IMG/VR virus record: IMGVR_UViG_2740892370_000019
Length of the DNA stretch: 9,625 nt
Source of the DNA: a virus
Lineage: Duplodnaviria > Heunggongvirae > Uroviricota > Caudoviricetes
Reading direction: 5' to 3' (one strand)
Part shown: positions 252 through 9,625 of the stretch, in pieces
How positions within the stretch are numbered: position 1 is the stretch's first letter
How the letters are laid out: each line of letters begins with the position of its first letter
Translations under genes and position numbers: made by a program
The notes under the pieces: generated by a model
Databases searched by the model: none
Told to the model about the DNA's origin: nothing
The model's input: the letters and a program-made list of their open reading frames with translations, nothing else

Positions 252-794
252 TTACTTGTCTTTATCCGGCTGAAACTTATCAGGCACATTTCCGGTAGTT
301 TCCATCAGATAATCGGACAGCATTCGCGGGATGTTTTCATCAAGTTTTGTGCATGCGTTACAGGCTCTGACAACTTCTTTTTTCAGGCCATCCAGCATGA
401 CGGGGGTCATCTGTGGGAAGCTCCTTTGCATAGTAAGCGGGAGGCTGTCCATGATTGATGAAATCTGACTCGCCAGTTTTGAAAGGGCGTACATGCAAAA
501 CTCTGTATCAATCACGTCACCGCGATCGCGCTCGTTTTTAAGTTCCTGCGCCTCCGCCTGTGCTGTCAGTAATCTGATCCTGACTCGTAAGAGTTCATCA
601 TCATCAATCTCGCCTTTGTCGTTTGTAAGCTGGCTAATTGCATTGTTAACCCTATTGTCTATCACGCTGGCAACATCATAAAACGCCTCACGGCCTTTAC
701 GTTCAACGGGAGTCACTCCCCACTTGTCGAATGCTGTAGCACTTACCCGGCAGCTTTGCGCCATGGTTTTTTTGTTCATCAGGTGCGATTTCAT
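252..794 (-). CDS. Terminase small subunit, lambda Nu1-like
   Basis: Translation aligns along its length with lambda Nu1 as I remember it (181 aa), e.g. LTAQAEAQELKNERDRGDVIDTEFCMYALSKLASQISSIMDSLPLTMQRSFP versus lambda LTRAQADAQELKNARDSAEVVETAFCTFVLSRIAGEIASILDGLPLSVQRRFP. It lies immediately downstream of a lambda-type cos site, as Nu1 does in lambda. The track start at 797 is a TTG; the first ATG is at 794 with GGGA upstream, and another ATG at 779 gives MNKK, matching the lambda N-terminus VNKK. Confidence 0.85.
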   Translation of the reverse strand: MKSHLMNKKTMAQSCRVSATAFDKWGVTPVERKGREAFYDVASVIDNRVNNAISQLTNDKGEIDDDELLRVRIRLLTAQAEAQELKNERDRGDVIDTEFCMYALSKLASQISSIMDSLPLTMQRSFPQMTPVMLDGLKKEVVRACNACTKLDENIPRMLSDYLMETTGNVPDKFQPDKDK

Positions 795-860: not shown

Positions 861-985
861 GAGATAGAGCAAACAACAAAACCACCACCACCACCCTGAA
901 AAAGCTCATAAATAGCGAAAAACCGCGAGGTCGCCGCCCCGTAGCCTACCGGATCGCCGGAAAGGACCCGCCAGCCAGAACGGGC
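861..985 (-). other. Lambda-type cohesive-end site (cosQ-cosN region conserved, cosB side diverged)
   Basis: The reverse complement of 928..975 reads GCTGGCGGGTCCTTTCCGGCGATCCGGTAGGCTACG followed by GGGCGGCGACCT. This nearly matches the lambda right end GGGTCCTTTCCGGTGATCCGACAGGTTACG joined to the 12-nt cohesive end GGGCGGCGACCT (here at 928..939). The next 25 nt toward the TerS gene (CGCGGTTTTTCGCTATTTATGAG) also match the lambda left end, after which the sequence diverges and includes a (CCA)n/GGTGGTGGTGGTGG tract at 881..896. Confidence 0.8.
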
Positions 986-995
986 CCTAATTTCA

Positions 996-1379
996 TCAAC
1001 CAATCAACTTATAGCGACCATCCCGTGCATTGCGACGTACACGCTCAATCTTGAGGCATAGCGCCGCATCTGGCTTTTTTGGGACAGGTACGCGGCAATA
1101 TTCAGAAGCTCGAGGAATATTGTTTATCCAGTCGATCACTTCACTTAAATACCAGGCCTTACGCCCTTCCGTAACCTGTACGCGTTCGGGGAACTCTCCG
1201 CGAGCCTCAAGGTTTAGCAATGTGCGACGGCTAAGGGTAGTAAGTTCCATCACCTGATTCATATCAACAAGGCGTTCACTTAAACGCATTTTGTCAGCAA
1301 TAGCCTTTAATTCCTCTACTGCTGGATCCGGATACATCATTTCGGCAATTGGCTTAAGGTCATTGTAATGATTCTGCAT
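996..1379 (-). CDS. AlpA-family (phage excisionase/regulator-like) HTH protein with N- and C-terminal extensions, 127 aa
   Basis: The central segment LTTLSRRTLLNLEARGEFPERVQVTEGRKAWYLSEVIDWI fits the AlpA/Xis-type winged-helix signature (hydrophobic HTH, GxFP, R..W..SEV..W). The ATG at 1379 is preceded by AGGGGG at 6 nt and sits 11 nt after the stop of the upstream decoration gene, suggesting coupled expression. The stop abuts the cos site. Confidence 0.65.
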   Translation of the reverse strand: MQNHYNDLKPIAEMMYPDPAVEELKAIADKMRLSERLVDMNQVMELTTLSRRTLLNLEARGEFPERVQVTEGRKAWYLSEVIDWINNIPRASEYCRVPVPKKPDAALCLKIERVRRNARDGRYKLIG

Positions 1380-1390
1380 TGTATCCCCCT

Positions 1391-1732
1391 TTACACACGA
1401 GCCAGCGGCTGAACAGAAATACCTGAGCCAACAAACGCGGCAACCTTTGCCGACAGTTCTTTTACAGACTCAGGCCAGTTCAGAGCATCAACATTTAAAA
1501 CACCTGTCTTATAAACCTGTGCCTGTGTTTTTTTCGCTGTGTCGATTTGTACAGCGGAAACATAAACCGCTTTGCCTGCGCTCGTTCCATCCCATACCAC
1601 TAGCGCACCAGTTGCATCTTCCTGCATCAGTGGCGTAAACGCAGGTATTACCCCTTTATTGGCTGAAAATATCCCCAGCGTAGTAACCAGTGCTTCAGTG
1701 CCAGACATGAGTTCAGTGTAATGAGTAGCCAT
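1391..1732 (-). CDS. Head decoration protein, lambda gpD-like (113 aa)
   Basis: TPLMQEDATGALVVWDGTSAGKAVYVSAV...YKTGVLNVDALNWPES...AAFVGSGISV matches remembered lambda gpD ([29 protein letters not shown]...YKSGTFRYEDVLWPEA...AFAGTAISIV). Size matches gpD (about 110 aa). GGGGGAG Shine-Dalgarno before the ATG at 1732; 9 nt from the capsid gene stop. Confidence 0.85.
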   Translation of the reverse strand: MATHYTELMSGTEALVTTLGIFSANKGVIPAFTPLMQEDATGALVVWDGTSAGKAVYVSAVQIDTAKKTQAQVYKTGVLNVDALNWPESVKELSAKVAAFVGSGISVQPLARV

Positions 1733-1741
1733 TGCTCCCCC

Positions 1742-2788
1742 TTAGCCAATGCGAACGGTAACAAAACGATTGATGCGGGCCGGTATTGGCTGTGGTGCTG
1801 AATGTGTCTGCACATATTCAATAGCCGGATCACCAGGCACAATATAGTTTTTCGGTGCAAGTTCGGCTTTAGTCAGCCCCATCCGGATTAGCTCCGGATC
1901 CTGAATACCGCCATAAGCGACAATCCCCTGAAGAGCCGTATTGCCAAGCACCATCAAATCAGGATCAAGGAAATATTTTTCAGTTCCGTCCTCGTCGGTA
2001 TAACGCCCGCTGTAAACAACAATCGCAACATCGCCCATATACCCTTTAAAACTCACCGAATCACCAAGGTCTTTAAGGGCCGTTTCCAGTTCGGAATTAG
2101 AACCACGACGAGTATCCAGAGCCTCTTTTATCGCCCTGAATGAACGGTATTTCTTCCATACATTACCGCCCATAATGATAATATTAGTGACGCCCTCACT
2201 AAATTCTGCGTAGCTCTCAATATCATCATTTGGATCAAAAGCTTCTTTATCCTTACCTGACCACTCAGCACCGCCAGACTGAGTGATGATATTTTGTGGT
2301 TTAATATTCCAGTCCAGCTCATAACGTTCAATACCATCGCCCTCAATGATATTTTTCCCCGTTGTGATTGCCTGAACGGCAAGCCATTCAATACGTGCAC
2401 GAATAGCTTTAGCCTGATTTACAATCGCCTGTTTAACTTTAATATTACGCGCTCCAAAAGCATTGTATTGCTCAGGTGATACACCAGCAGGGCGCACAGC
2501 TAACTTATTTGGATCAATGCTGCTTTTCGGTTTCATATAGCCAGGGCGAATTGTTTTTGATTCGTATCCCTCATCTCGTGAAACTTTACTGCCCACCATA
2601 GGAGAGCAAAACGCCGCGATCGGGATATTTGGATCGTCGATCGTATCAAGAATAATTTCTCTCGATTCAAACATTACCGAGCGAGTGAAAAACAAACTGG
2701 TAAACAACGCATTTAATTTTTTTTGCACATCTTCAGCATTAGCCACCTGCACAAGCTGTGTAGGCGAATATAAGTCAACCATACTCAT
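1742..2788 (-). CDS. Major capsid protein, lambda gpE-like (about 347 aa)
   Basis: Long collinear similarity to remembered lambda gpE: N-terminus MSMVDLYSPTQLVQVANAE versus MSMYTTAQLLAANEQ; core NIITQSGGAEWSGKDKEAFDPNDDIESYAEFSEGVTNIII...FRAIKEALDTRRGSNSELETALKDLGDSVSFKGYMGDVAIVVYSGRY versus lambda NITQSGGTEWSKRDKSTYDPTDDIEAYALNASGVVNIIV...FKAVKEKLDTRRGSNSELETAVKDLGKAVSYKGMYGDVAIVVYSGQY. The track ORF (to 2869) is over-extended upstream; the true start is the ATG at 2788 (MSM...) or at 2782, the latter having AAAGAGG at ideal spacing. Confidence 0.9.
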   Translation of the reverse strand: MSMVDLYSPTQLVQVANAEDVQKKLNALFTSLFFTRSVMFESREIILDTIDDPNIPIAAFCSPMVGSKVSRDEGYESKTIRPGYMKPKSSIDPNKLAVRPAGVSPEQYNAFGARNIKVKQAIVNQAKAIRARIEWLAVQAITTGKNIIEGDGIERYELDWNIKPQNIITQSGGAEWSGKDKEAFDPNDDIESYAEFSEGVTNIIIMGGNVWKKYRSFRAIKEALDTRRGSNSELETALKDLGDSVSFKGYMGDVAIVVYSGRYTDEDGTEKYFLDPDLMVLGNTALQGIVAYGGIQDPELIRMGLTKAELAPKNYIVPGDPAIEYVQTHSAPQPIPARINRFVTVRIG

Positions 2789-2953
2789 CCTCTTTACATT
2801 CATTACAAATAATTGTGAATATATTCTATTACCGATGTCTGCTATGCGAATACATGCAACCAAGTGCAATGTTGTATAAAATATGCCGTGACAACTTCAG
2901 TGCTGATAATTCGTGTTAATGTATTTACTTCCTTTGGTCGGGATTTATGTAGC

Positions 2954-2994
2954 ATGCCGGAAAATCTATTTTTTTCCGGCATCTTTTTGTTTGC
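2954..2994 (+). terminator. Strong stem-loop with T-tract (intrinsic-terminator-like) between the SSB and capsid genes
   Basis: Perfect 11-bp inverted repeat ATGCCGGAAAA (2954..2964) / TTTTCCGGCAT (2972..2982) with a 7-nt loop, followed on the plus strand by CTTTTTGTTT. It is canonical only for plus-strand transcription; read on the minus strand the stem lacks a downstream U-tract, so any termination of the ssb transcript would be weak or factor-dependent. Confidence 0.45.
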
Positions 2995-3661: not shown

Positions 3662-3701
3662 AGTTCAGATCTCAATTTTTCGTATATATATACAAAACAG
3701 T

Positions 3702-4024
3702 GCGGGTTATGCGGGTTAGCGGGTTAGCGGGTTATCTTCGCTTGCTAAGTATTTTTTATTCCTTAATATCAATACATTACAAAATTAACTGTTTACTGTT
3801 TAGCCGTGGCGTAACCCGCAAAATGCTCAAAATAACCCGCAAACGGGGTTTTTTCTGCGGGTTACGCGTGGCTGTTTGCTGTCACTTCCTGTTATTCATC
3901 TGCGGGTTATAATCGCACTTTTGCGGGTTATAACTGCCGTTTTGCGGGTTACGTGCGAGTTATTGATTTCCTTTTTATTCATGCAGTTAATGCACTTATA
4001 CACAGAGTAACCCGCATAACCCGC
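3702..4024. repeat. Iteron array and AT-rich region, putative replication origin
   Basis: Twelve copies of the 8-bp motif GCGGGTTA or its complement TAACCCGC: four tandem copies at 3702..3734; complement copies at 3812..3819, 3833..3840, 4008..4015, 4017..4024; direct copies at 3857..3864, 3902..3909, 3923..3930, 3944..3951, several extended to TTTTGCGGGTTA. They flank an AT-rich stretch at about 3735..3800, directly downstream of the primase-like gene. Confidence 0.7.
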
Positions 4025-4047
4025 AACTTTTCACCTCACACAGGGGG

Positions 4048-6171
4048 TTAATCTTCTGCCTCAGGCTGGAACATCAGCACGTAAAAAACATGCTGCTTCC
4101 CCCCAATTTTGCCGAGAGCCTTTTTCTTGTAACGGCGATCGTTACCCGCTTCCAGCATTCCGGCAGCACTCAACGCGCGGGCAAAGTGGGACGGGTTAAA
4201 TCCCTGTGCGATCTCCCCCTCAAACACATGAGGAAACGTGTAAAAACGGAACTCATCATCTTCATTTCTGATACTCCCCTTTCTGTATCCGGCAAGGTCT
4301 TTAATCGGTAAATCACGTTCATCACTGTTTGGGTAAGGAAGGTATCGACTGAACCCGAACGACGACAAAAACGCCTCAGCCTGTTCAACCATCTGTTTAA
4401 ATTCCCTGTTACCCGTGCCGAACTCCTTCACCCAGGCATTAAAGTTATGCTGTATTGCGTCCCGGCATTCCTGCGCGGCCCAGCCAGTTACATGACCGGA
4501 AAGCACAAGCGCGGCCTCCAGTATGGCGAAACGCTCACCCACGCGGTGGACCTGCTCGCCGTAGCTCTCCGGTATCAGGTTGCGCCACCGTTCGCGGCAT
4601 TCCCTTACCGTATCCTTTGCCTCCTGCTGGTGGCCTGCCAGCCATTTAACCCACTCACGACCCGCTGCCCCGTGATTTTCTGTCCAGGCATCCTTTAACG
4701 CGTCTGCGTGCGCCTTTCCGGTGCTGTATTCGTGAAAGTGCGTGGCTTTTTCCATCGGAACGTTAAGCAGGCGGACAAGCTGCCCCGCTTTGACTTTTAT
4801 CCCCTCCGTTTTGAGGAATGTCTCAACGTCCATTTCTCCGGTGCTGATTGCCACCGTGCGCCAGTGTTTTATCTCCCGGTTGCCGCCGTCCTTCGCCCCC
4901 TGTAATTTCCCGGAACCGTTAAACAACGTATAGGCTGACGTGGACACCTCCCGCGCGTTTCCGGCCTGGCCTATTTCATCCAGGGGTAACAGCCCGTCGT
5001 TGTGCGCCTCTGCCTCGTTAGCGATACCTAACGCTGTGCCGTACCAGGTCAGCCGTTGTGCGTCCGGCTCTCCCCATAAACTTGATGCGATGTTCTGCGT
5101 GGTGGTTTTCCCTGCCGATGACTGTTCGAAAAGATGTACCCCGAAGCCGTCAGCACCAACAAGGCCAATCAAAGGTGCTGCCAGTGACGTGGCAACACCC
5201 AGCATCATGGACGGATTGCCACCAGCCAGCCGCGCCACGCAGTCGCGCCAGCCCTCCGCCGTACCCGCAACCGAATAGCCATTAACAGCGGCACTTTTTC
5301 CGGTAAACAGGATCGGTTTTTCAGAATCACCAATGATTGAGCCGTCCGGCATGATATACGCGCCAAAATGCCAGCCCGTTGTTGTGCTTAGCTGCCATTC
5401 CTCATGGCTTCCGCTTAACTGCATCCAGTCAGCCAGGATAGCCCTGTATTTGCCGTTTGTTGTCACGTTCAGCCCGTGATCTTTAAGCAACCGCCAGCCG
5501 TCACGGTCGCCAATGCCACCACACGGGATCGCCATTGTGATGACTTCATGGTTTGCTAATTTTTTCCAGCGCATCACGCGGTAATGCTCTTTACCGATCG
5601 TCCCCGTTCCCAGTAGTTCAAGCGGAGAACATAACCACGTCTCAGGCCGGATAATTTCGCCTGACTGCTTATCCACTTTGGGCGTTACCCAGAAAACACC
5701 ATCGACGCGACTTTCAACGCGGGGCTTTAATTCATCATCCTGATAGCATGGCTCTTTTTTCTTTACAGGCAGTTCAACTACCTTTTTCTTTTCCGCCTGC
5801 TCTGCCCGTTCACGTTCCAGATATTCGCGCCAGTTCTCCCGTTTCTGGCTGTGCATTCCTTCAGGGTAATAATCAGCATCCCTGACACCTGCCGCTGCCA
5901 GTTTCTGCCCGATGGTATTAACAAGCCCCGGACGCAATAACCCCGCCTGGTAGAGACGCACGCGATAGCGTCCGTCCGGTACGATTTGCAGGTTGTCCAG
6001 TTCGGCAAGTTGTTGCTCTCCAAGCCAGACAGGTGGCACGTTATCGCCAGCCAGTCGCCCGTCCTGTTCCTGCCACTGCTTCGCATGTGCCCACGCATCA
6101 CTACCCGCAAAAATGATGACTTCCGTCATTTTGTCACGCGGCTGGTGTTTTAAATTTGGCGCTTTTTTCAT
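4048..6171 (-). CDS. Replication protein, primase/helicase-like (P4 alpha / D5-type family assignment tentative), about 707 aa
   Basis: Large ORF with a central P-loop-like motif FEQSSAGKTT. It is the last gene of an operon beginning near the operator region and lies next to the iteron array, the layout expected for a satellite pri-rep gene. The track start at 6186 is a GTG; the ATG at 6171 (MKKAPNL...) has GGAGAG at about 8 nt and overlaps the stop of the upstream gene. Family membership was not verified. Confidence 0.75.
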   Translation of the reverse strand: MKKAPNLKHQPRDKMTEVIIFAGSDAWAHAKQWQEQDGRLAGDNVPPVWLGEQQLAELDNLQIVPDGRYRVRLYQAGLLRPGLVNTIGQKLAAAGVRDADYYPEGMHSQKRENWREYLERERAEQAEKKKVVELPVKKKEPCYQDDELKPRVESRVDGVFWVTPKVDKQSGEIIRPETWLCSPLELLGTGTIGKEHYRVMRWKKLANHEVITMAIPCGGIGDRDGWRLLKDHGLNVTTNGKYRAILADWMQLSGSHEEWQLSTTTGWHFGAYIMPDGSIIGDSEKPILFTGKSAAVNGYSVAGTAEGWRDCVARLAGGNPSMMLGVATSLAAPLIGLVGADGFGVHLFEQSSAGKTTTQNIASSLWGEPDAQRLTWYGTALGIANEAEAHNDGLLPLDEIGQAGNAREVSTSAYTLFNGSGKLQGAKDGGNREIKHWRTVAISTGEMDVETFLKTEGIKVKAGQLVRLLNVPMEKATHFHEYSTGKAHADALKDAWTENHGAAGREWVKWLAGHQQEAKDTVRECRERWRNLIPESYGEQVHRVGERFAILEAALVLSGHVTGWAAQECRDAIQHNFNAWVKEFGTGNREFKQMVEQAEAFLSSFGFSRYLPYPNSDERDLPIKDLAGYRKGSIRNEDDEFRFYTFPHVFEGEIAQGFNPSHFARALSAAGMLEAGNDRRYKKKALGKIGGKQHVFYVLMFQPEAED

Positions 6172-6467
6172 TTCTGCTCTCTCCACGCGGCAATCATGTT
6201 TTTCAGTTCCTGTAGTTTTTTATCAACATCCATACATGACACATGGTTATTTCTGGAAGGCGGGATTTCCCGCCGGAATCTGCAAATAAAGATCTCCACG
6301 TTCAGCGAGCTATGAAATGAATAGCCATCACGAATAAAATACACACGGTCAAACATTATCGATTTTACTGTTACTCTGTTGCCGTTCTTATCCCAATAAA
6401 TAGCGCCGGGGATAATTTTGGGGTGTGCATAACCGCTGGCAGTCAAGCCAGATAAATATGTTCTCAT
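6168..6467 (-). CDS. Hypothetical protein (99 aa), AT-rich, coupled to the primase gene
   Basis: ATG at 6467 with GGGGA upstream; 6-nt gap from the preceding gene; stop overlaps the primase start. Visibly lower GC than the flanking primase gene. No family recognised. Confidence 0.6.
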   Translation of the reverse strand: MRTYLSGLTASGYAHPKIIPGAIYWDKNGNRVTVKSIMFDRVYFIRDGYSFHSSLNVEIFICRFRREIPPSRNNHVSCMDVDKKLQELKNMIAAWREQK

Positions 6468-6990: not shown

Positions 6991-7087
6991 AGCTACCTCG
7001 ATAATCTTTCTATCGTTGGTGGTTAGAAGCCCGGTTAGTGTTAGCGCACTGCCGGGTTTCGTCGTTTCTGCACCTTGCATCAACAAG

Positions 7088-7160
7088 GTGTTAAACACCA
7101 ATTTAAGCCTAGGTGTTAAACACGTCAAGTGTTGAACACTTATTTTTTTTCCTGCATACT
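7088..7160. promoter_or_regulatory. Three palindromic operators with an overlapping candidate promoter for the plus-strand regulator gene
   Basis: GTGTTAAACAC at 7088..7098 and 7113..7123, and GTGTTGAACAC at 7129..7139; each has half-sites GTGTT/AACAC forming an inverted repeat. Centre spacings are about 25 and 16 bp. TTGAAC (7132..7137) lies inside the third operator, then a 17-bp spacer and CATACT (7155..7160), about 30 bp before the ATG at 7190. Confidence 0.55.
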
Positions 7161-7759: not shown

Positions 7760-7969
7760 TTACGCTGCCTTTCCTGAATTAATGCGATCCCGGCTTTTAA
7801 CCCATTCCATAACCTCAGACTTAACCCAGCCAACCGAACGACCTCCAAGACTGATACGGGAGGGAAAGCGGCCTTGTTTTTCCATCTCATAACGAGTTGT
7901 ACGGCAAACGCCTGTTAGCTCTCTGCATTCTTTTTCACGGATTACACGATCTTCATTTATTTCGCGCAT
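7760..7969 (-). CDS. alpA: AlpA-family prophage regulatory protein (69 aa from the ATG at 7969; possible longer form from GTG at 8053)
   Basis: CRELTGVCRTTRYEMEKQGRFPSRISLGGRSVGWVKSEVMEWV matches the AlpA signature (HTH, G.FP, R.VGW..SEV.EW). Adjacent to and co-oriented with the integrase, as in CP4-57/P4-like elements. The track N-terminus starts at a GTG. Confidence 0.8.
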   Translation of the reverse strand: MREINEDRVIREKECRELTGVCRTTRYEMEKQGRFPSRISLGGRSVGWVKSEVMEWVKSRDRINSGKAA

Positions 7970-8386: not shown

Positions 8387-9625
8387 TCAAGAATTTTGGG
8401 TGTAAATTCGCGGGGTCATAACAACGATTTTTTCATCATTGTTCTGGAGAAGCTCGAGACGGTCTACCCATAGATTAAGAGCATCACGTTTTGCATCAAG
8501 ATAGCGGGAGTGGTTATAGACTCGTTGCATCCCTGGCATCTGGTGGGCTGTAAGCTGCTCGACAATATGCGGATCCACGCCTAAATCGTTCAGCATGGTT
8601 GTAAATGTGTGCCGGATATCGTGTAACGTCCAGGGGGCTTGATTAATTCGTCTGTGCGCTGTTCTTCCGTACTCTGCTACCGAAGATTGTCCTTTCAGTT
8701 CACCAAGCAATAAGCCCGTGTGTCTGTTCTGCTCCACCAGCTGCGTGATGAACGGCAAAATGCTTTCCGGTATTGGCCTGAATATGGCGACCTTCGTTTT
8801 GCTGTGCTCCTTCGGTACCGTCCAGAGCATTTCTTTAAAATCCCACTCCTGCACCTCAGAGCGCCTTAGCTCGGTGGTACGGCATCCGAAAACAATCAGG
8901 AGGCGAATTAGGGCGCTGTAGTACGGCGGGAATATTTTGTCATCCAGGGCGCGGAGTAATTCCCCAAGCTCCTTGTTTGTTAGTACGCGCTCGCTCACTT
9001 CTGCTTTTTTTCCCACATCACCGACAACCATATCATCAAGAACGTTGCTGATTGCGTATCGTCGTTTTCGGCAGTACTTAAGCGCCTGTTTGCATACCTG
9101 TAGCAAAAATCCGGCAGATACTGGGCTTCGCTTTGCCATCTGGTCAAAACATGCCAACCAGTGCCGTAGCTCGCATTTTTCCAACGGCAAAGCGCCAATC
9201 TGGCTGATTATGTGTTTATTGATCCGGCTTTTCAGTGATTCGTAGTCAGTGCGCTTTTCCTTTGCATACGATTCAAGCCAGTAAGTGAGCGCTTCCTTAA
9301 CTGTCACGGGGGCTAACGCATCCTGTACAGCACGATTAAGCTCATAGCGCGGATTTTTCCCCTCAGCCAGCCAGGCGCGACACTGTGCTGCTATTTCCCT
9401 GGCTGCTTTCAGGCTCAGATCGGGATAATTGCCCAGTCTCAGACGTTCCGGTGATACCTGCCTACCAGTTCCGGCCCTGTAAGTGAAATACCAGGTTAAC
9501 AGGCCGCTGGTGGAATGTCTTACGCTAAGATTGCCACCGTCATTAAAAAAGGCGTTTTTTGTGGTTGGTGATCCGCTTAATTTTCGTAAAAGAGTGTCGC
9601 TAAGTCTATGAATTGCGCTGCTCAT
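8387..9625 (-). CDS. int: Tyrosine site-specific integrase, P4-type (412 aa)
   Basis: Full-length ORF with the start at the window edge. The C-terminal catalytic region contains LHDIRHTFTT and ...GMQRVYNHSRYLD (His-x-x-Arg and the catalytic Tyr context). Size and the adjacent alpA are typical of P4-like integrase modules. Confidence 0.9.
   Translation of the reverse strand: MSSAIHRLSDTLLRKLSGSPTTKNAFFNDGGNLSVRHSTSGLLTWYFTYRAGTGRQVSPERLRLGNYPDLSLKAAREIAAQCRAWLAEGKNPRYELNRAVQDALAPVTVKEALTYWLESYAKEKRTDYESLKSRINKHIISQIGALPLEKCELRHWLACFDQMAKRSPVSAGFLLQVCKQALKYCRKRRYAISNVLDDMVVGDVGKKAEVSERVLTNKELGELLRALDDKIFPPYYSALIRLLIVFGCRTTELRRSEVQEWDFKEMLWTVPKEHSKTKVAIFRPIPESILPFITQLVEQNRHTGLLLGELKGQSSVAEYGRTAHRRINQAPWTLHDIRHTFTTMLNDLGVDPHIVEQLTAHQMPGMQRVYNHSRYLDAKRDALNLWVDRLELLQNNDEKIVVMTPRIYTQNS

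Follow-up and report, generated by a model that had tools for sequence, protein, structure and literature searches.

The window, that is the whole stretch of 9,625 nucleotides (nt) analysed here (IMG/VR record IMGVR_UViG_2740892370_000019), is by its gene content a Gram-negative phage-inducible chromosomal island (PICI), a kind of phage satellite. Its long genes all lie on the minus strand, and their order matches the four-zone layout described for these elements (PMC6092414, PMC10111431): in the direction of transcription, an integrase, a short alpA, an Icd-like gene, a DUF4222 gene, a DUF927 primase and an iteron-rich origin are followed by a gene of 80 amino acids (aa), a gene for a single-stranded DNA-binding protein (SSB), a major capsid gene, a decoration gene, the gene studied here, cos and a Nu1-like small terminase (TerS). 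The gene studied here, named alpA2, occupies positions 996-1379 (minus strand) and encodes AlpA2, a protein of 127 aa. It is the third gene of a capsid cassette. The first gene (1742-2782, minus strand, with the start called by PGAP) encodes a major capsid protein resembling gpE of phage lambda, 42% identical to lambda E and 55% to c1499 of the satellite EcCICFT073. The second (1391-1732, minus strand) encodes a head decoration protein resembling lambda gpD. The domain family of AlpA2 is well known; what would be new is an extended AlpA-type protein acting as the resident regulator of a mobile capsid cassette.

The open reading frame (ORF) is confirmed as a real gene: the ORF call coincides with domain matches, and PGAP annotates the identical frame in Escherichia coli chromosomes that carry 99.9%-identical copies. 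A Shine-Dalgarno sequence, AGGGGG (1385-1390, minus strand), stands 5 nt upstream of the ATG (1379), directly after the TAA stop of the decoration gene (1393-1391). Because of this arrangement, and because the gap between the two genes is 11 nt with no overlap, they are considered to share an operon. Residues 36-85 of AlpA2 match the Pfam family Phage_AlpA (PF05930) with an E-value of 1.4e-8 and 34.9 bits for a cut-off of 21, covering profile positions 2-51 of 51, and PHROG 2790 matches the protein end to end (1.8e-48). The excisionase of GIsul2 (PDB ID 8C3T) is matched at 1.6e-10, with 40-44% identity, and it is the one solved protein found with a profile of the AlpA2 family (2.6e-13). An AlphaFold2 model (pLDDT 75.2, from a deeper alignment; a first model, at 58.7, was discarded as too poor) is predicted to share a near-perfect fold with 8C3T, the winged helix-turn-helix (HTH) motifs being superimposable. 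The layout comprises an N-terminal extension of two helices (residues 8-15 and 19-33 within segment 1-35), the winged HTH (36-85), a linker and a conserved basic C-terminal helix (~105-119) with the motif L-x-L-K-x-E-R. The structural matches are restricted to the core, the N-terminal helices and the C-terminal helix having no structural counterpart among them.

The extensions, 35 aa on the N-terminal side and 42 aa on the C-terminal side, are both conserved in 127-aa homologues across the Enterobacteriaceae (Escherichia, Enterobacter, Citrobacter, Klebsiella, Salmonella, Pluralibacter, Kosakonia, Kluyvera, Cedecea, Buttiauxella, Scandinavium, Serratia and others), among which the HTH is nearly invariant. 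Members of Phage_AlpA are typically small single-domain proteins of ~60-90 aa, a description that AlpA2 does not fit; its atypical size is compatible with membership of the domain family. A hidden Markov model search of 1.84 billion representative proteins returned 2,255 AlpA-type proteins, and the extended architecture is narrow since only ~5 clusters cover the extensions. A preliminary description of this DNA had proposed an HTH core of AlpA type, a second gene of this type in the island, extensions of about 40 residues on both sides and coupling to the decoration gene, all of which the present analysis bears out. The other AlpA-type gene lies next to the integrase (7760-7969, minus strand) and is the candidate master regulator or recombination directionality factor (RDF) of the satellite; its product is 30% identical to AlpA2 over 56 aa, within the HTH. 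Databases name AlpA2 only "helix-turn-helix transcriptional regulator" or "AlpA family". The NCBIfam search gave zero matches, tblastn against GenBank phages found no match to the target, and viral and metagenome scans found no orthologues of the distant AlpA2 lineages, whose contexts came from other searches. The literature searches found no described function for the protein, no paper on a late-zone AlpA paralogue or a phased array, and nothing relevant on 8C3T.

Shortened forms occur naturally: the proteins P0089, P0090, P0092, P0095 and P0097 include fragments of 73-94 aa, P0092 with 31 member sequences. P0120, considered as an AlpA2 C-terminal tail on another domain, was rejected as such and is a natural capsid-AlpA2 deletion chimera. 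The shortened forms and the chimera could serve as natural knock-outs of alpA2.

The linkage of alpA2 to the head genes is invariable. In 17 of the 17 loci examined (the window, L003-L010, L029, L058, L063, L072, L130, L132 and L136-L139) the same succession of hairpin, promoter, major capsid gene, decoration gene and alpA2 is found, with alpA2 directly after the two head genes and gaps of ~6-13 nt; the linkage extends to two distant lineages (~50% identity), one of them from Serratia. The primases of the carriers are of three types (DUF927, D5_N/Pox_D5 or Toprim). Their integrases are 41-51% identical or show no detectable identity, and fall into at least four integrase/attachment-site (att) types: clpS-cspD, prophage capsid gene, next to fis and near rpoD. 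The int-adjacent regulator is either AlpA-type or HTH_17-type. Three packaging arrangements stand 3' of alpA2: an own Nu1-like TerS with a (GGT)n cosB, an Rpp, or a complete helper-type cosB with lambda-like R3, R2 and R1 and without a specificity gene. Since the integration and packaging modules vary around the cassette, AlpA2 co-varies with the capsid genes only, and it is the only DNA-binding protein common to all loci examined. The capsid and decoration genes and alpA2 form a self-contained, horizontally mobile cassette, whose lineage turned up in 398 of 5,426 complete E. coli genomes and occurs in no fewer than 15 further genera of enterobacteria. EcCICFT073 serves as a control: its late gene order in strain CFT073 is capsid, decoration, c1501, cos and rppA, and it has a 55%-identical capsid gene, yet it lacks both AlpA2 and the phased pattern described below. 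Its c1501, considered because it occupies the alpA2 slot, is unrelated to AlpA2.

The promoter region of the capsid operon (P_cap) contains an array of hexamers. Four hexamers in exact 10-bp phasing, the candidate AlpA2 sites, cover positions 2844-2879 (minus strand): TTATAC (2879-2874), TTGCAC (2869-2864), TTGCAT (2859-2854) and TCGCAT (2849-2844), with the spacers AACA, TTGG and GTAT between them. They are followed, after 15 nt, by the -10-like hexamer TAGAAT (2823-2828, minus strand), homologous to the TG-extended -10 (TGnTAnnAT) of related loci. Across loci, two to five TTRYAC hexamers with exact 10-bp phasing precede the -10. Nine other loci of the main family have TTATAC and three TTGCAY, then ~25 nt, then the TGn-extended -10; the P0117 lineage has CTATAC, TTGCAC, TTATAC and TTGCAT, Buttiauxella and Scandinavium have TTATAC twice, and the Serratia lineage has five phased hexamers (TTAGAC, TTAGAC, TTGGGT, TTGTGC and TTGTGC). 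Hand inspection of P_cap found no -35-like element, and the -10 is TG-extended in most loci, not in the window. With the -10 placed at -12 to -7, the array extends from ~-73 to -38 in most relatives and from ~-63 to -28 in the window. The gap to the -10 is 14-15 nt in the window and the Serratia lineage versus ~25 nt elsewhere; as this difference is about one helical turn, the helix face is preserved.

The pattern TTRYAC-N4-TTRYAY has two overlapping matches in the window for 0.04 expected, only upstream of the capsid gene. It was found nowhere but upstream of the capsid gene in related loci of 16-20 kb, and no further phased pattern appeared in the whole island with its att flanks when one mismatch was allowed. 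The information content, measured over ten diverged loci of the main family, is 1.68 bits in the hexamer columns, 0.93 in the spacers and 0.59-0.78 in the flanks, the flanks of the array being otherwise unalignable. An exact scan of viral contigs for triple hexamers returned at least 120 stretches, only five of which are this cassette, so that the motif alone is not diagnostic. In the Serratia lineage, AlpA2 has an R52Q substitution in the recognition helix alongside the TTAGAC/TTGTGC hexamers in the same phasing, and the lineage keeping R52 keeps TTGCAC/TTATAC; the changes in recognition helix and hexamers possibly co-vary. A GC-rich hairpin separates the replication module from the capsid gene in every locus, followed by a T-run in several relatives; in the window it is a stable hairpin at 2954-2982 (minus strand, z = -4.9), between the SSB gene and P_cap. 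In Cedecea, alpA2 is followed by a canonical terminator, an 8-bp GC stem with U6 (L010, 10372-10396). Taken together, the missing -35, the TGn-extended -10 of most loci, the upstream hairpin and the Cedecea terminator indicate that the capsid operon is an independent transcription unit. A longer capsid ORF in the program-made list, starting from a TTG at 2869 inside the hexamer array, is considered spurious because the PGAP start at 2782 has a good Shine-Dalgarno sequence (AAGAGG) and agrees with all relatives.

These features lead us to favour, with a probability of roughly 45%, a role for AlpA2 as an activator that is encoded in the cassette, reinforces its own expression and acts on the capsid operon of the satellite. 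AlpA2 is paired with the array because it is the only DNA-binding protein common to all array carriers; its binding to the repeats is likely on these grounds, and activation rather than repression is suggested by an array placed upstream of a -10 with no usable -35, a geometry suited to RNA polymerase recruitment. The central winged helix would recognise the TTRYAC hexamers, present in two to five copies one helical turn apart, and the protomers would stack head to tail, like winged-helix proteins of Xis/RDF/BldC type, with the N-terminal helices helping AlpA2 to oligomerise, as in RdfS. Array-bound AlpA2 would then recruit RNA polymerase to the -35-less promoter that drives capsid, decoration and alpA2, the basic C-terminal helix being a candidate contact with the polymerase. 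Slight read-through from the early operon, or basal transcription, might prime P_cap. As alpA2 is the last gene of the operon under its putative control, a positive feedback loop would result, driving high expression of capsid and decoration proteins late in satellite induction. Of the two roles offered in the preliminary description, this late-operon activator is the one favoured by the third-gene position, the 10-bp-phased repeats and the lack of a -35, the binding of AlpA2 itself being a deduction from them.

Several points weigh against such an activator. The pairing of protein and sites rests on co-inheritance in one cassette lineage, as read from sequences, and linkage alone could yield it; the apparent co-variation of R52Q and hexamers is a single event. 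An operon that depends on the product of its own last gene raises the question of a primer. The window hairpin upstream of P_cap lacks a U-tract in the operon direction, so that transcription running through from the replication module may reduce the need for a dedicated activator. The proximal hexamer of the window overlaps the -35 position, which would suit a repressor too, and the hexamers contain TTGC-N6-TTGC, the site of lambda CII, so that the repeats could be bound by a helper factor instead. The capsid and decoration genes of EcCICFT073 are, moreover, dispensable for transfer and interference (PMC6092414, PMC10111431), which puts the pay-off of regulating them in doubt.

The same geometry bears on two other readings of P_cap. 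In one, AlpA2 would be a negative autoregulator that acts on the same hexamers and represses P_cap, capping capsid and decoration expression. The array is one turn closer in the window and the Serratia lineage, with its proximal hexamer over the -35 position, and the extended -10 could allow activity independent of any activator. Many RDF-type proteins repress promoters, Cox and Vis among them. The same is true of Apl, another RDF-type protein (PMC7498355). In most loci, however, the array lies at ~-73 to -38, off the -10 and the start site and with no -35 to occlude, a layout typical of activation, and repression is on balance unlikely. The other reading, a little less unlikely, is that the repeats are read by another factor (a helper CII-like protein, the satellite master regulator or a host protein), AlpA2 regulating elsewhere, for instance helper genes. 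TTGCAC-N4-TTGCAC contains TTGC-N6-TTGC, the arrangement of CII half-sites at lambda pRE, pI and paQ. Satellites often encode regulators of helper late genes, delta of P4 being an example. The helper factor that induces Gram-negative PICIs is still unidentified (PMC6092414). Lambda CII itself was rejected as the binder: the motif fits literally, but the distance from the end of the proximal TTGC to the -10 is 13 nt at pRE versus 27 nt here, the hexamer variants TTATAC, TTAGAC and TTGTGC lack TTGC, and there are two to five copies versus a fixed pair in the CII site. The array is also kept with alpA-type and HTH_17-type master regulators alike. No phased pattern was found in the two helper sequences scanned, lambda and a 49-kb CFT073 stretch that covers the EcCICFT073 late end together with a large part of its helper prophage, which leaves a helper target for AlpA2 unsupported.

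The two remaining readings place the action of AlpA2 on att or on cos. As a second excisionase or RDF, it would bend att DNA and direct the integrase to excision late in the cycle. The fold fits, and the nearest solved relative, 8C3T, is an excisionase; the preliminary description had named clear homology to a standard excisionase, together with a cognate att site close by, as an observation that would count against its own proposal, and of this pair the relationship stands but the att site is lacking. The distance of alpA2 from int is 7 kb and that from the nearest att core 1.9 kb, and comparison with a Xis profile gave only a trivial HTH alignment. Besides, an AlpA or HTH_17 gene next to int is already present in every satellite, and the HTH of AlpA2 is nearly invariant whereas the integrases are 41-51% identical or undetectable, with at least four att sites. 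No phased hexamers of the TTRYAC type, the presumed specificity, occur near either att site of the island. The doubled att-arm motif of helper-embedded PICIs was rejected as an AlpA2 site: it has a 12-bp spacing and is absent from non-embedded carriers. A second excisionase is, all considered, improbable.

Most improbable is a packaging factor at or near cos, which would mark the right genome end or cosQ, or bind satellite or helper TerS or terminase in the manner of Rpp or lambda FI, the other role offered in the preliminary description. The alpA2 stop is close to cosQ, at ~26-60 nt, in 11 of the 13 cassettes whose downstream DNA was inspected, the MerR-like winged-helix fold class of AlpA2 is shared with the TerS DNA-binding domain and Rpp, and its extensions are free of assigned function. 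Rpp proteins, of 135-153 aa, combine a winged helix at the N-terminus with an oligomerisation domain like that of TerS (PMC6739421, PMC9026076), and they are encoded immediately downstream of cos, in the lambda Nu1 position (PMC9026076), as confirmed in EcCICFT073 and Pluralibacter. The gene for AlpA2 is upstream of cosQ, its HTH is central with no TerS-like dimerisation domain behind it, and the slot held by Rpp in EcCICFT073 is occupied in the window by the Nu1-like TerS. BLASTP between AlpA2 and Rpp found nothing, and hhalign of the AlpA2 family profile with a profile of 14 Rpp sequences gave a probability of 0.2%. The Rpp profile works, since it recovers RppC (6HLK) at 5e-43 and lambda-type TerS DNA-binding domains at ~0.03; the AlpA2 profile matches neither. 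In Pluralibacter gergoviae, an AlpA2 orthologue (74% identical) coexists with an Rpp 70% identical to RppA and is separated from cos by another gene. AlpA2 was rejected as an Rpp on these grounds, namely absence of homology, location on the wrong side of cos and coexistence with a true Rpp. Because the same AlpA2 accompanies own-TerS, Rpp and helper-type cosB systems alike, it does not co-vary with packaging specificity, and binding of helper TerS to redirect it to the satellite cos is unlikely. The DNA between stop and cosQ, short and not fully conserved across lineages, contains no phased hexamers of the TTRYAC type.

Other known proteins were tried and set aside. AlpA2 has no Packaging_FI match in Pfam, and hhalign gave a probability of 0.2% with lambda gpFI and 1.5% with Nu1; the profile comparisons with lambda FI, Xis and Nu1 yielded only trivial HTH alignments. 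The AlpA of Pseudomonas aeruginosa is an eight-helix, 21Q-like protein with an HTH at ~128-142 (PMC9371919); antitermination of this type was rejected on the basis of the published architecture, the shared name being coincidental.

Among related regulators, the closest in fold are the excisionases of AlpA/Vis/Xis type. AlpA2 shares with them the 50-residue core, the fold and candidate direct repeats one turn apart, typical of this family (PMC7498355), but it is twice the usual size, with conserved extensions, and its gene is away from integrase and att, as the last of the capsid operon. Sites of this kind, direct repeats with a spacing of one helical turn, characterise the winged-helix proteins of Xis/RDF type, and several of these proteins control promoters as well (PMC7498355, PMC11963761, PMC5859096). 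BldC forms head-to-tail multimers on direct repeats (PMC5859096), and RdfS has an extra N-terminal helix for oligomerisation and binds promoters too (PMC11963761). BldC, RdfS and Apl of phage 186 are all small proteins of MerR/Xis-like type, which assemble head to tail on direct repeats and control promoters; they differ from AlpA2 in that they have no close sequence relationship to it and act in another biological setting, and in that the binding of AlpA2 is only predicted. The int-adjacent AlpA of EcCICFT073 is an activator of the satellite cycle (PMC6092414). AlpA2 resembles the int-adjacent PICI AlpA in domain family, kind of element and probable activator role, but is encoded in the late zone and is only 30% identical over the HTH to the int-adjacent AlpA of its own island; it is also found in satellites with an HTH_17-type master regulator and is absent from EcCICFT073. 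Rpp proteins (RppA/RppC) are likewise small satellite proteins with a MerR-like winged helix encoded near cos, differing in the downstream location of their genes and in their N-terminal HTH. The delta protein of P4 is a satellite transcription activator encoded in the sid-delta-psu operon, a capsid-related late operon next to cos; it is an Ogr-type zinc-finger protein acting on late promoters of both helper and satellite. The likeness is that of an activator encoded within the satellite's own capsid-related late operon, the role of AlpA2 being putative; the fold is unrelated and no helper target was found for AlpA2.

A wider proposal, as improbable as the second excisionase, is that an excisionase-type protein was exapted as a late switch whose extensions also contact a helper or host component, the candidates being RNA polymerase, helper terminase or TerS, and the procapsid. 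Such a switch would tie satellite capsid expression to the helper late phase or to packaging from the adjacent cos, and AlpA2 would then be a dual regulator and packaging-coupling factor with no described counterpart in PICIs. The findings have a wider bearing. A capsid gene of lambda-like type, as a rule accompanied by a decoration gene, is found in most Gram-negative PICIs. In the widespread lineage studied here the two genes form an autonomous unit with a promoter, a conserved operator-like array and a putative regulator of its own, and this unit has been shuffled among satellites that differ in their modules for integration, replication and packaging. A single protein and a single 36-bp array offer a handle on the timing and purpose of capsid protein synthesis by the satellites themselves, and a tempting but wrong assignment to Rpp is removed.

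Downstream of alpA2, the cos of the window is genuine and of lambda type: the cohesive end of cosN (928-939, minus strand), GGGCGGCGACCT, is identical to that of lambda over its 12 nt, a cosQ-like GGGTCCT (963-969, minus strand) forms the 3' arm of a 10-bp hairpin, and the stretch from cosQ to cosN aligns with the lambda right end. From the stop codon of alpA2 it is 26 nt to cosQ and 56 nt to the nick. That alpA2 abuts cos, as described previously, therefore applies to the window but is not conserved, a 131-aa ORF lying between the two in Pluralibacter. The hairpin with the cosQ arm (945-990, minus strand), which begins immediately behind the alpA2 stop and precedes a UUUCC, has a z-score of only -0.9; the capsid operon may end at or in cos. 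A GGCCCG...CGGGTCC hairpin recurs between the alpA2 stop and cosQ.

On the far side of cosN, a candidate satellite-specific cosB of (GGT)n type (881-896, minus strand; position counted by hand) stands at the position of lambda R3, ~+45 to +58. Satellites with their own TerS (the window, L003, L007, L009 and L132) have such (GGT)n repeats, for example GGTGGTGGTGGTGG, at ~+45 to +58 from the cohesive end, with a CACC-rich stretch farther on (CACCAACACACCAACC in the window, CAATACACCCACC in relatives). The Rpp-type satellite (L006, ~2307-2325) has CCACACCACCACCAC at +50 to +64; since this is the complement of (GGT)n, the TerS and Rpp specificity systems may read related triplet repeats in opposite orientation. 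In L008, L029, L058, L063, L072 and L130, neither TerS nor Rpp is found downstream of the AlpA2 orthologue and the cosB is complete and lambda-like (R3, R2, R1); therefore the helper's unmodified terminase is presumably used. The 131-aa ORF of the Pluralibacter satellites (L006 1848-2243, equivalent to L004/L005 8389-8784) lacks the Rpp HTH, and its C-terminal half is similar to the TerS-contacting C-terminal part of RppA (E = 4e-10 in tblastn, with 35% identity over 78 aa); the ORF might encode a decoy or partner derived from Rpp. The Nu1-like small terminase of the window is full length (180 aa; 252-794, minus strand) and lies outside the cassette.

In EcCICFT073, a gene for a PerC-family regulator stands just upstream of the capsid operon, and irregular TTGCAA/ATGCAA-like words precede a TATAAT (L011, 13960-14208 and 14300-14440); this arrangement may represent another way of meeting the same regulatory need. 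Six of the other carriers (L003, L007, L010, L058, L072 and L132) are helper-embedded PICIs inserted in a prophage major capsid gene, which they split into residues ~1-86 upstream of int and ~83-346 after the satellite. They have the doubled TGTATTGC motif at both ends; these elements and this motif have been described (PMC10111431).

The integrase gene occupies 8387-9625 and the DUF927 primase gene 4048-6186, both on the minus strand. Just downstream of the latter, at 3700-4030, an iteron cluster TGCGGGTTA(Y) in both orientations corresponds to the expected PICI replication origin. The Rfam and transfer RNA scans found nothing. The E. coli copies of the island are inserted between clpS and cspD and flanked by a 15-bp direct repeat, ATTAACTACACCATT, the att core, which is seen at both island ends beyond the window (L001, 3085-3108 and 13657-13671), and ATTAACTACACC is present in tandem duplicate at the clpS-side end. 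Between the Icd-like gene and a divergent gene of the YlcI/YnfO family, positions 7086-7139 of the window harbor three copies of AGGTGTTAAACAC, each nearly palindromic, which look like operators of the early regulatory region.

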